Positions 15,814 through 61,510 of a stretch of 64,000 nt of DNA are shown in pieces. The stretch's first letter is position 1; every line of letters starts with the position of its first letter. Position numbers and translations under genes: made by a program. The stretch comes from Octopus vulgaris (Eukaryota), in assembly GCA_951406725.2 (NCBI GenBank), contig OX597819.1, positions 86,304,001-86,368,000 of the forward strand. Direction: 5' to 3'. The notes beneath the pieces were generated by a model. That model did no database searches and was not told the DNA's origin. It saw nothing but the letters and a program-made list of their open reading frames with translations.

Positions 15814-15876
15814 TTTGAGCTGACGAAAGAAATGCTGATTTTATTTGGCTAATCTTGAAACGTTGACGTACTCAAA
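15814..15876 (+). ncRNA. Type I hammerhead ribozyme
   Basis: TTTGAG-CTGACGA-AAGA(22 nt)TCTT-GAA-ACGT-TG-ACGT-A-CTCAAA: helices I, II and III all pair; GUA cleavage after 15870. Confidence 0.88.
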
Positions 15877-16239
15877 CGATCTATGTACTTGTGATATTTT
15901 TCTGTATTTACCCCCAAACCTTCGTGAGCTGTCTGGAGTAAACATTATCTGAGAGAATTTTTCTTTAAGTAGTGGAAATGCTAAGAAAAAATTTTTTTTG
16001 GCTGCTATTTCTACTAAGTTCAGTATGTGGCAAAGTAATTTATTTTACTAAGCCCTAATTATATAATGTAATATTTTGAATTCGCCTTAAATGGTCCTTT
16101 TACATACTGAACACTTGGTGAAATTGATTAATTAATTAATTTTACCCTCAATTGTTGATATATGTATATATATATATATATATATATATATATATATATA
16201 TATGTATATATATATGTATATATATGTATATATGTATAT

Positions 16240-16410
16240 ATTCTTTTATCTGCTTCAGTCATTTGACTGCGGCCATGCTGGATCACTGCCTTTAGTCCAA
16301 CTAATCGACTCCGTGACTTTTTCTTTGTAAGATTAGTACATATTCTATCGATCTCATTTGCCGAACCGCTTATTTACGGGGACATAAACATACCAACATG
16401 GGTTGTCAAG
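16240..16410 (-). mobile_element. SINE 3' fragment
   Basis: Reverse complement of the ccagcatggccgcagtcaaatgactgaa tail shared with other SINEs in the window. Confidence 0.7.
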
Positions 16411-16617
16411 GAATATACATGTTTATACAAAATATATGTATATGTATATATATATGTAAGTATGTATATGGATAAATGTATATATCTATGGATATATATA
16501 TATATATATATATATATATATATATATATATATTTATATATATCTCCCTCTATATATATGTTTGTATATATATATATATATATATATATATATATTTATA
16601 TATGTGTGTGTATATGT

Positions 16618-17110
16618 GGAGGCGCAATTACCCATTGGTTATTGCAGCAGACTCGCAGTTGTAGCATCGCAGTTTCGATTCTTTTGTTCAGGACTTTTGT
16701 TTCGCTTTCATACTACATGCATTGTCTCCAGAGGTTATTGAACCTCACGTGTATGAGGGAGAAAGCTAACTACGCACTGCTGTGAAGATGGTTACTTAAA
16801 GCAAACCCCTTGTCCGAAGCACCTGTGAATAAACGGTTATTGAATTTACTCCGCCAGAGAACTTCATTCTTCGTATTTCCAGCTCCTTGAATCAACAGAA
16901 TAATTATAATGACTGAAGAAGATACCCCAAAAGTATCCGTATAAACCTTCCTTCCATTATACCATAAGTTAGTGTTTCGGCAAAATGACCAATAGTATAA
17001 GTACCAGACTTAAAAAGAAGCACTTGGGTTGATTTGTTCGACAAAACCCTTCAAGGCAGTGCCGCAGCATGGCCACAGTCCAATAACTGAAGCAAGTAAA
17101 AGGTAAACGA
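16618..17110 (+). mobile_element. tRNA-derived SINE (degenerate)
   Basis: ggaggcgcaat...gtttcgattc head; gcagcatggccacagtccaataactgaa tail. Confidence 0.6.
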
Positions 17111-17339
17111 TACAGATATTACAAATGTTTATATTGGCTTTAGATGCAAAGAAGTTTTCGGCACATCTGTGACTCACGGCAACGCTATTAAATATCGTAT
17201 AATATCAATAGCTTATGAGAAAAAATATTTTATTTAGTAATATTTAGGAAAACCACATCATTGGAATATTTGAAGCATGGAAAGAGTGTACCCTATGTTT
17301 CGTTTGTTATGTTTTCATTTATGAATATTAGTCTTGGTT

Positions 17340-17520
17340 AAGGCGGCGCGCTGTCAAAATTGTTACCGTGCCGGAAAAAAATGCTTAGCAGTATTTCTTC
17401 CGTCTTAAGTTCTGGGTTCAAATGCCGCCGAGGTCAATATAATAAGTACCAGTTCAATACTGAGATTGGCGTACCTCTCCTCCGAAAATGCTGGCTTTGT
17501 GCCAAAACTTGAAACTAGTA
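17340..17520 (+). mobile_element. SINE (GGCGGCGAGCTGGCAGAA family), degenerate
   Basis: Similarity to other copies in the window. Confidence 0.65.
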
Positions 17521-17599
17521 TTAGTCTTGGTCTGCTTAGAACGTATTTTATTTTGACAGCATGGGGTAAGTTGGATTACTTCGGGAGGGTTACAATGAT

Positions 17600-18760
17600 A
17601 TAAGGCAATATCTCGTTAGATTTACTATAATGGCAGTAGTCACCAGTACTGAAGTCCAAAGTTATTTCTTTTATTTCTTTTATGCGATTTAGCCATGAAA
17701 CTGCGATCGTATTGGAACACCAACTAAACTTTGATTTGTATCAACTATAATCTTTAAATCTAACTTCGTTGTTGAGCTTCTTAATAATATCCATTGTATG
17801 GTTATTCATAATTAGCTAAATGGATGGTCTATTGTCATGATGAATAGAAAATTTAGGGAAACGGATTTCTTACGAAGTAAGTTTAAGATTTAACGTCATA
17901 TGAATTTAAAAACATCAACCTATTTTACGATTCCATAGTGATGTGAAATAATTTCTAGTCACCATTCTAAACCCCAACTCTTCCCTGAATAGTAGAATAG
18001 TAAATGGTACGCTTAGCAATATTATTGTCTAAATCACTAAGTGAAATAAAACCTCTGCTAAATTCTAAATCGGTGTAATTGTAGATGGCTAACCCTGATA
18101 TTAGACAGCATACATTTAAAAAGGTACTTATTATCTATATTATTGAACCATTTGGTGATAGCAAAATTGTTATCTGCCATACCGGAATCTAAGTGACTCT
18201 TAATGCTGACAATAATGGGATTTAAATGATTTTCACTCTCTATATTTATCTAATTTTTTTCTGTATTTATTAACTCGCGTTTGATGTTGGCAACAAAAAT
18301 GTTTCTATGATTTTTAGATGTAATATATTGTTCATCTTATAGTTATTGGTGATGTAGATATTTTCTTCTCTATATTGCTGATATTGTTATGAAGTTGTCT
18401 CTGGTATTTGTAGATTTCAGTTTTATACATATGTTTCGTTTTATCTAAGGAGGTCCGAATATTTTAAGGGATGATGATATCAATTATAAAATCGATGGTT
18501 CTATTACAGAACACGCATCTCGAAGCTTTAATTGATTTAGAAGGTGAAAAAATATACCTGACGGCGAAGTGTGATGTATTACGTGTTGTAAATTTGAACA
18601 AAACATCGGATTTGAATAATTCTTTCAGAAACATCCAACGATATTAATTGAGGGTTTTCAGACTACCAACAGAGTAACATAGTTTATATAGGATAGTTTA
18701 TTTGCAACAGTTAAGACGTTGTCCTACTTTCATCATTTAAAAGTTAGTGACGGGAAACGT
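17600..18760 (-). pseudogene. Highly decayed Penelope-like RT remnant
   Basis: Minus-strand AITKWFNNIDNKYLFKCM resembles the PLE motif WF..I..K....F..FDI; otherwise heavily disrupted. Confidence 0.3.
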
Positions 18761-18819
18761 TAAGTACTGATCTAAGAACTGTCAGTTAATAATGGCAATA
18801 GTGATGCTAATAATAATAA

Positions 18820-59409: not shown

Positions 59410-59832
59410 GGGCGCAGGGTGGTTGTGTGGTAAGAAGCTTGCTTCCCAACCAAATGGTTCCGGATTCAGTCCCACTGCGTGGCATCTTGAGGAAGTGTCT
59501 TCTGCTATAGTTTCGGGCTGACCAAAGCCTTTTGAACGGATTTGGTAGGCGGAAACTGAAAGAAGCTTGTCGTTCACACACACACACACACACACACACA
59601 TATATACATATATATATATTTGTGTGTGTTGTATCTGTCCCAACAACTAACGCTTGACAGCCGATGTTGGTGTGTTTACGTCCCCGTAAATTAGCGGTTC
59701 GGCAAAAGAGACCGATATACTGAGTAGCAGGCTTACAAAGAATAACTCCAGGGTCGAATTCTTCGAGTAAAACAAGCGGTGCTCCAGCATACTCACAGTC
59801 AAAATGACTGAAACAAAGAAAAGTGTAAAAGA
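59410..59832 (+). mobile_element. Full-length tRNA-derived SINE
   Basis: Same family as 41383 and 53850. Confidence 0.85.
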
Positions 59833-60104
59833 ATGAAGAAAGCTAGCACATCAGATGGAATAACACCAACTTCTTGTATGAAATAATAAAACAGAGTTAA
59901 TTCATCGCCTTTTACATGAAACACCTCTCCAAAACAATACGAAAGAGAGCACTAGAGATGTAGAGATAGGGATGTGTGCGTGTGTGTGTGTGGAGTCAGA
60001 GAGAGAGAGAGAGAGAGAGAGAGAGAGAGAAAAGTGAGAGTGGGAGATGCTTAACAATACTTTTCACCCAGAAAATTTAAGGTCCCTAGATGCTGGATCT
60101 ATAT

Positions 60105-60260
60105 CAGGTGTCCTCAACCAATGCCCCGTGGACCAGTACCGTACTGTAGGTCATTAGTTACCGGGCCACACAGAAAGAATAATTCTTAAATGCCATTTTT
60201 ATTTTATTGACTGCAGGGTGTTGCAGTTTGAAAATATTACCACTTCCGCCTGTGCCTCTT
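60105..60260 (+). mobile_element. hAT/Charlie-like MITE end
   Basis: CAGGTGTCCTCAACC...GGACCAGTACCG...ACCGGGCCACACAG terminus pattern. Confidence 0.45.
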
Positions 60261-60492
60261 GATATTATATATATATATATATATATATATATATATATAT
60301 ATATATATATATATATATATATATATACAAAATTTAAAGGACTGACCACTAAAAGTGGACGGTCAACATGCTAGATATAGACGTCAAATCGCTATTTTCC
60401 ACAAAGAATATTTTCTCAAATAAAAATCCAGCACGAACCAAAGTATTAAAATTAAGCAAGACAAATGAAAATATACGAAATAAAATGATTAC

Positions 60493-60559
60493 CTATGTAC
60501 CGATCAGTTTCGATTGTTATTATCCATGCATGTGAATACCCGCAATCTCTTCAGCATAG
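60493..60559 (-). ncRNA. Type I hammerhead ribozyme within a solo TA-flanked element (60330-60598)
   Basis: Minus CTATG-CTGAAGA-GATTG(26 nt)CAATC-GAA-ACTGATCGGT-A-CATAG. Confidence 0.87.
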
Positions 60560-60844
60560 TCGACATATAGAAATACAATTTGCAGGACTAGATACAAATA
60601 TATATATATATATATAATTAATCAATATAGGGTGGCAAAAAAAAAATTTTGTAGAATTCTTTGCCACCAGCGGCCTAGTAGGAAAAATTAAAATAGTCAT
60701 AGACCATTTTTAAGTTCAACATCAACAATAAAGGAACGGCCATAATAGGCCATTCACCCACTAGAAATAACAGCCAAAGCTTCAACCGCAAATAAAAGTT
60801 AATTCAGTAAACCAGGAGAAAATTTAAAAATCATTTACCCTGTA

Positions 60845-60951
60845 ATTTCTTATACGATATACCGTTTCATCTGCTGATTAATGGTAAACTAACCTGATTA
60901 AATTAAATCAAGCTAATCTTCCACAGGCCCTCAGATTCTTCAGTAAGAAAT
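60845..60951 (-). ncRNA. Type I hammerhead ribozyme (inverted unit)
   Basis: Reverse complement of 61404-61510. Confidence 0.87.
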
Positions 60952-61403
60952 ATCCCAAGACGGAACAGATATTTTCACGAGGCATTTCCGACGTTGCCAA
61001 GTTTATATCTGACCTAAAATTTTCAAATCGTCGCACTCGCGCCAAATTTATCGGCAGCAAATAAATATAAGCCGTCGATTCCATTACGGAATTAACCAGA
61101 AAATTCATAATTAATCAATTATTCGTTCCTTTATTGTTGATGTTGAACTTAAAAATGGTCTATGACTATTTTAATTTTTTCCCTACTAGCCGCTGGTGGC
61201 AAAAGAATTCTACAAAATTTTTTTTGCCACCCTATATTGATTAATTATGAATTTTCTGGTTAATTCCGTAATGGAATCGACGGCTTATATTTATTTGCTG
61301 CCGATAAATTTGGCGCGAGTGCGACGATTTGAAAATTTTAGGTCAGATATAAACTTGGCAACGTCGGAAATGCCTCGTGAAAATATCTGTTCCGTCTTGG
61401 GAT

Positions 61404-61510
61404 ATTTCTTACTGAAGAATCTGAGGGCCTGTGGAAGATTAGCTTGATTTAATTTAATCAGGTTAGTTTACCATTAATCAGCAGATGAAACGGTATATCG
61501 TATAAGAAAT
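61404..61510 (+). ncRNA. Type I hammerhead ribozyme; repeated at 61896-62002, 62389-62495, 62882-62988, 63375-63481 and 63868-63974
   Basis: ATTTCTTA-CTGAAGA-ATCTG(long hairpin)CAGAT-GAA-ACGGT-AT-ATCGT-A-TAAGAAAT: 8-bp helix I, GUA cleavage after 61502. Confidence 0.9.

Follow-up and report, generated by a model that had tools for sequence, protein, structure and literature searches.

Hammerhead ribozymes with palindromic helix III sequences in arrays of repeats without open reading frames in Octopus vulgaris: a predicted preference for the double form

A 64,000-nucleotide stretch of the Octopus vulgaris genome (assembly GCA_951406725.2, contig OX597819.1, positions 86,304,001–86,368,000 of the forward strand; termed here the window, with positions counted from its first letter) contains several families of type I hammerhead ribozyme motifs, each with its own self-complementary or nearly self-complementary helix III. 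This raises the question of whether such ribozymes are cut as monomers, or whether two copies pair through helix III and cleave as a double hammerhead. An initial annotation of the sequence favored the dimer, proposed that selection maintains the structure, and suggested that a tandem arrangement may be needed for activity. The window has a GC content of 35.5% and is dense in microsatellites and retroelements. Positions of the families (A–F, and M for minimal hammerheads) are given in Table 1.

The core consensus used was CUGANGA, GAAA and UH with helices I–III, the ends meeting in helix I. Exact core boxes were demanded by the scan, with minimum pair counts of 3 for helix I, 4 for helix II and just 2 for helix III. 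This strict scan shows 14 intact type I cores (A 3, B 2, C 7, D 1, M 1). When the 64-kb window was shuffled 200 times with dinucleotides preserved, the mean was 0.05 cores and no shuffle gave more than 1. Type I hammerhead structure in the window is far beyond chance. Rfam hammerhead models gave 0 matches in the window at the gathering threshold, and there was no hammerhead among the matches listed (150 of 185) at E-values up to 10; the long helix II may be the reason. A match at position 11018 from a relaxed scan, with a 93-nt helix II, was judged a chance occurrence, and a palindrome at 6781 that has no intact core was left out of the counts.

Helix III is self-complementary from end to end in all 14 cores, the bases of the monomer loop included. 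This is true of none of the nine shuffle matches with a helix III span of 8 or more. The independent units are the four families A–D and not the 14 copies. The chance of four central bases pairing is 0.149 per family, or about 5e-4 for four families, and the monomer loop is self-complementary in four of the four intact families. A pattern scan of metagenomes, which gave 118 loci, was reused as a chance control; in these unrelated matches such pairing is seen in 8 of 76 distinct inserts. The 118 loci display no homology to family C beyond the search pattern among the BLAST matches listed. One of them (L054) has an upstream CTGANGA box and complementary helix II ends, and is possibly an unrelated hammerhead.

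The palindromes might instead have arisen at the DNA level, by template switching during reverse transcription, or by chance, and have no function in RNA. Such an origin fits the abundance of hairpins and inverted repeats in the elements, as well as the two decayed motifs that are still palindromic. However, the palindrome is placed exactly between GAA and the cleavage triplet, in cores that the shuffles hardly produce. In addition, helix III has G-U pairs on the ribozyme strand in three of the four intact families, and such pairs fit RNA pairing better than a DNA palindrome. An absence of RNA function is considered highly improbable.

All six palindromes listed at the outset occur in the window, and on the hammerhead-sense strand the next base is A in every case. 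Those of families A, B, C and D lie in intact cores with helices I and II, but families E and F are decayed. In the family E core (42217), CTCAGGA and GATA replace CTGANGA and GAAA, with substitutions at G5 and A14. The family F core at 53605 (minus strand) retains intact boxes and the palindrome, but its helix I is unable to pair and there is damage to helix II; in the core at 53762 (plus strand) helix III is partly deleted. The GUA triplet had been described as invariant. It is shared by families A–F, its G and U being fixed by the core, but the three minimal hammerheads of the window read GUU, GUU and GUC. Two of these minimal cores (44949 and 58778, plus strand) display CCGACGA (U4C), a core variant that the two share.

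Family-specific pairing in helices I and II had also been proposed. Up to four different pair types are seen at helix positions across families A–D with the pairing kept, as displayed by an anchored table, which was substituted for a MAFFT alignment of the six motifs that did not align the cores. Pairwise comparisons of seven family units (21 pairs) show similarity above the shuffle level only at the core region of B and C, together with a borderline AT-rich end motif in A and C. Because the families cannot be aligned outside of the core, and because pairing was demanded by the scan, helices I and II do not permit a formal test of covariation.

The helix III loop is the part that is free of this search bias. 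Across the families its dyad pairs are U-G, C-G, A-U and A-U, and the pairs next to the dyad are U-A, A-U, U-A and G-C. The bases at the dyad center are adjacent, so that pairing between them is impossible within a monomer and possible only between two copies. Variants were read from contigs of four public runs (X1, X3, X16 and X17) placed on positions 60330–61125, and cover 40 of 90 variant rows; none of the runs is registered as RNA. In family C, changes at 60859 and 60860 convert the two central bases from AU to GC. The two variants are equal in depth and contigs in X3 (1696 of 2688; 4 contigs) and in X17 (83265 of 99318; 22 contigs), and nearly equal in X16 (468831 and 470099 of 476034; 53 and 57 contigs), and neither is found in X1 among the variant rows covered. 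With the change from AU to GC the monomer hairpin stays at −0.1 kcal/mol, and the predicted dimer duplex goes from −13.6 to −17.5 kcal/mol; a single change, giving an A-C dyad center, weakens the predicted duplex to −7.1. This double change, probably one event, is the strongest new evidence for pairing between copies. A further family C variant, at 60873, keeps the helix II pairing as G-U. A contig of run X1 related to family D (60501) has a different 9-nt self-complementary helix III with one central base unpaired.

Folding energies were calculated for the two forms. The monomer helix III hairpins have energies of +0.4 (A), +2.4 (B), −0.1 (C) and +1.5 (D) kcal/mol, and the duplexes between two copies −10.8, −10.3, −13.6 and −12.2 kcal/mol, respectively. 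A weak monomer helix III with a self-complementary loop, which is a criterion for double hammerheads, is thus displayed by A–D. The double hammerhead is favored over two monomers in three of three real tandem pairs, by 8.4 (A) and by 10.0 and 9.5 (C) kcal/mol. When the loops are replaced by non-complementary ones (10 per family), the mean advantage vanishes (0.0 and +0.6). These models predict that the dimer is preferred over two monomers.

A preference need not be a requirement. The elements may be the same, with the ribozymes of A, C and D working adequately as monomers; the palindrome would then provide an optional dimer or suit a circular RNA, and tandem copies would be unneeded. Beyond A15.1-U16.1, the monomer helix III has two pairs and a tetraloop in A and D and three pairs in C, in family A no more than 0.3 kcal/mol separates the active monomer from the minimum-energy fold, and family D is intact despite being a single copy. 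In addition, single repeats from coral and mussel were cleaved at ~0.8 and 0.1 per minute (PMC7229834). On the other hand, for an axolotl form with two pairs, cleavage was 22% in the monomer and far better in the dimer (PMC7229834), and the self-complementarity of the loop in four of four families and the joint dyad change are left unexplained. Adequate function as monomers appears rather unlikely. In family B, where the monomer helix III consists of one Watson-Crick pair and a palindromic tetraloop, a requirement for the dimer is likely. In A, C and D the dimer may or may not be needed, because for hammerheads of invertebrate retrozymes good cleavage of a lone genomic repeat has been published (PMC7229834).

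The arrangement of the carrier units bears on the need for tandem copies. Family A forms a head-to-head array, and family C has one inverted unit followed by a tandem array. The copies of B and F are paired in inverted orientation, and of D and E there is just one copy each. Thus the proposed tandem arrangement stands for A and C, the only families in the window with a second ribozyme on the same strand, but not for the others. A read-through transcript of family B is expected to form a long duplex rather than a double hammerhead.

The units of A, C and D have no open reading frame (ORF) with an ATG start of more than 66 codons; the longest are 66 codons (C) and 34 codons (A). Retrozymes are marked by ORF-less units in tandem, every unit containing a complete type I hammerhead; C has 6 such units in a row and A has 2. 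Unit RNAs taken from cut to cut are highly self-paired (folding z = −6.75 for C and −6.29 for A). The four insertion ends set by self-alignment all touch (TA)n, vs. 2.1% of the window; other ends, read by eye, are also on (TA)n, although these are partly defined by the microsatellite itself. Both outer ends of the inverted insertions are 3′ ends of the ribozyme-sense strand, and family A shows two alternative 3′ ends, 96 nt apart. An inverted 5′-truncated copy, a (TA)n target and alternative 3′ ends are used to recognize non-autonomous Penelope-like elements. All three are found here, with A, B, C and F being inverted.

It has to be considered whether the repeats are fragments of the pseudo-long terminal repeats (pLTRs) of autonomous Penelope-like elements, amplified locally by unequal crossover, in which case the palindromes would be inherited and the short units not selected. 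Autonomous elements normally leave inverted 5′-truncated copies of their pLTRs (PMC8557442), terminal repeats have been proposed to amplify locally (10.64898/2026.07.22.740005), array C is 99% homogeneous, and family M in the window behaves in this manner. Against this, the unit junction of family A is found in both inverted arms, and therefore the template was already multimeric at insertion. The family C junction recurs in contigs of other runs, where a junction contig fits a circle or a tandem array alike, and the lack of an ORF above 66 codons in A, C and D also does not fit. An origin as pLTR fragments is judged improbable.

An endonuclease remnant of Penelope type is present in the window. 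Its best match, the top of 30 in a profile search, is an Octopus bimaculoides GIY-YIG protein (58% identity, E-value = 1.8e-11); a word-indexed protein search with the endonuclease piece gave no match, and Pfam gave nothing meaningful for the window's piece. Relatives of the remnant (P0012, P0025) have a CX4CxxC stretch ahead of the GIY-YIG core, a feature tied to the Neptune and Nematis clades and to (TA)n targeting (PMC8557442). By position the remnant is linked to family M alone and not to A–F, as a family M hammerhead lies about 1.2 kb downstream. The plus-strand segment 57298–58900 consists of the endonuclease end, ~1 kb of (AC)-rich sequence, the minimal hammerhead and (TA)n, and is probably the 3′ end of a decayed autonomous element.

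What is observed comprises the motifs with their palindromes, the inverted arrays, the ends on (TA)n and the absence of ORFs. The explanation that we favor, with somewhat more confidence than doubt, is that the ORF-less units are non-autonomous Penelope-like elements (non-LTR retrozymes), whose multimeric transcripts are cut as double hammerheads and copied in trans. Two neighboring units of one tandem transcript would pair as a double hammerhead, likely the best cleaving form. The multimeric transcript would be cut after GUA to give structured unit-length RNAs, which may circularize. A Penelope-like reverse transcriptase/endonuclease acting in trans would nick (TA)n and begin copying internally, at AU-rich positions that lie 3′ of the ribozyme; the use of both target strands would result in head-to-head arrays. 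Copies that are single or inverted are likely dead ends of this process and then decay, as in E and F.

Several points weigh against this explanation. The double form has a small share of the predicted ensemble (0.13, 0.0004 and 0.014). Any palindrome favors a duplex, so the energies restate the palindrome, and the models leave out tertiary contacts. The dyad double change probably goes back to one inherited event; its phase is deduced from the agreement in depth, and it could result from template switching without selection. Tandem copies are present in two of the six families in the window, and within it there is no sequence link of A–F to an autonomous element or its pLTR. In published work, 8 of 9 Xenopus dimers showed no cleavage in vitro (10.64898/2026.07.22.740005), and an anole element was inserted without ribozyme cleavage (PMC11167929). 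As to the proposal of selection and dimeric cleavage, the beyond-chance structure, the palindromic loops, the weak monomer helix III and the double change in C speak for it, but the decayed examples and the non-invariant GUA do not.

Palindromic helix III, a dimer model, low activity and opposite-strand pairs have been reported (PMC4209133), and the concept of paired hammerheads is already in print (PMC4209133, PMC7229834, PMC6765202). Tandem retrozymes with monomer and dimer assays are described in coral, mussel and axolotl (PMC7229834). A 2026 preprint derives retrozymes from pLTRs, with units of 51–972 bp and cleavage in 1 of 9 dimers (10.64898/2026.07.22.740005). For Penelope-like elements, inverted 5′ copies, optional tails and a (TA)n bias are on record (PMC8557442, PMC3846280), and two-strand cutting and priming, an internal start and protein-assisted cleavage have been shown (PMC11167929). 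No published account of the present families was found in a search that covered main texts and few subscription papers.

The closest systems are the metazoan non-LTR retrozymes (Cervera and De la Pena 2020, PMC7229834; Li, Clavereau, Pollet 2026, 10.64898/2026.07.22.740005). They share tandem ORF-less units with one type I hammerhead each, a GC content of <50%, strongly self-paired unit RNA, monomer and multimer copies, and a short helix III with a palindromic loop. In contrast, the units described here (493 and 567 bp) are above the 150–450 bp of the 2020 account, although inside the 51–972 bp of 2026; helix II has long hairpin extensions (30–68 nt span) where theirs has 4 bp and a short loop; and the insertions have inverted 5′ copies and (TA)n ends. 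The published minimal-form hammerheads are similar in type I topology, a palindromic 15.2–16.2 and loop 3, the dimer model, many divergent families per genome and opposite-strand pairs 100–700 bp apart, and family M fits this system. Unlike the minimal form, A–D have helix III palindromes of 8–12 nt, no extra nucleotide after A9 and no attached ORF, and G10.1-C11.1 is found only in B and D (A-U is there in A and C). Among newt and axolotl satellite hammerheads, B corresponds to the form with one pair and a palindromic tetraloop, and A and D to the two-pair form (PMC7229834). Those hammerheads, however, have canonical loop 1–loop 2 contacts; loop 2 is long and variable here, and such contacts were not identified.

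Table 1. Hammerhead motifs, carrier insertions and endonuclease remnant in the 64,000-nt window
Family	Feature	Position	Strand	Remarks
A	ACGTTGACGT palindrome	15860; 14552	+; −	then A on hammerhead-sense strand
B	ACACGTGT palindrome	44300; 44095	+; −	then A
C	ACGGTATATCGT palindrome	61490	+	then A; five further + copies, one − copy
D	ACTGATCGGT palindrome	60508	−	then A
E	ACGATCGT palindrome	42285	+	then A
F	ACAGCTGT palindrome	53540	−	then A
A	Insertion (self-BLAST)	14347..16161		head-to-head inverted array, 567-bp unit without ORF
A	Arm	14347–15356	−	1.8 units; outer end on (TA)n
A	Arm	15364–16161	+	1.4 units; outer end on (TA)n
A	Hammerhead	14536..14598	−	downstream member of tandem pair
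A	Hammerhead	15103..15165	−	upstream member of tandem pair; C15.2 = U (U-G wobble)
A	Hammerhead	15814..15876	+	helix I 6 bp, helix II span 30 nt, helix III 10 nt; predicted cut after 15870
B	Insertion	43875..44370		one inverted pair flanked by two (TA)n tracts; no same-strand partner
B	Hammerhead	44084..44163	−	helix II span 55 nt
B	Hammerhead	44240..44311	+	helix III 8 nt; predicted cut after 44308
C	Inverted copy	60617..61119	−	one unit + about 10 nt; outer end on (TA)n
C	Hammerhead of inverted copy	60845–60951	−	
C	Tandem array	61124..64000	+	493-bp unit, at least 5.8 copies, 99% identity; continues past window end
C	Array hammerheads (6)	cores 61412, 61904, 62397, 62890, 63383, 63876	+	helix II span 68 nt, helix III 12 nt; first predicted cut after 61502
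D	Copy	60330..60597	−	single, 268 bp, flanked by two (TA)n tracts
D	Intact hammerhead	60493–60559	−	predicted cut after 60498
E	Decayed hammerhead	42212..42298	+	single copy, 8-nt palindrome intact, (TA)n at 42332
F	Inverted pair	53254..53828		older; arms 88% complementary
M	Minimal hammerhead	33010..33044	−	4-nt palindrome, GUU, intact core
M	Minimal hammerhead	44946..44978	+	U4C core variant, GUC
M	Minimal hammerhead	58774..58808	+	U4C core variant, GUU; (TA)n near 58897
	GIY-YIG endonuclease C-terminus remnant	57298..57575	+	Penelope-type, frameshifted

Other sequences in the window may be mentioned. In family D, a splice-donor-like AGGTAAT (60484–60492, minus strand) overlaps the 3′ strand of helix I; in the Drosophila virilis Penelope element an intron end abuts helix I on the opposite side (PMC4209133). 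Tandem and inverted copies of a ~200-bp repeat at 18900–19875 adjoin (TTA)n, and an inverted pair at 11444–11884 surrounds a (TTA)n tract; no hammerhead core was found in either by the scans. A near-complete non-LTR retrotransposon at 21438–25381 (plus strand), with frames of 537 and 801 amino acids and Pfam matches to RVT_1 (E-value = 1e-27) and zf-RVT, adjoins (AAT)n. It recalls the R4/Dong elements that target TAA repeats, a provisional label. Further non-LTR fragments are at 7377–9306, 26077–26460 and 34788–36667, and a DDE_3 transposase fragment at 2083–2460 (minus strand), with an E-value of 7e-4, falls short of the Pfam cut-off.

A broader proposal is possible but doubtful: that cephalopods have a radiation of strict dimers with a long helix II, in which compensatory changes between copies are a record of selection on the pairing and the (TA)n arrays are footprints of Neptune-type two-strand copying of multimers. 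If this is true, a long palindrome would have been traded for the usual loop–loop contact, and only multimeric transcripts would be cut.

The palindromic helix III observation is real and its concept is already published; the additions are a set of families that are probably from cephalopods, the long extensions of helix II and a single natural double change at the dyad axis. The finding extends a known system and opens no new one. The dimer model for animal hammerheads rests mainly on in vitro work with weak ribozymes. Many divergent young families in one genome are a natural test of the model, where paired loop changes over thousands of copies would show selection. The inverted arrays anchored in (TA)n lend support to a recent idea, that Penelope-like enzymes mobilize animal retrozymes, and do so outside of the vertebrates.

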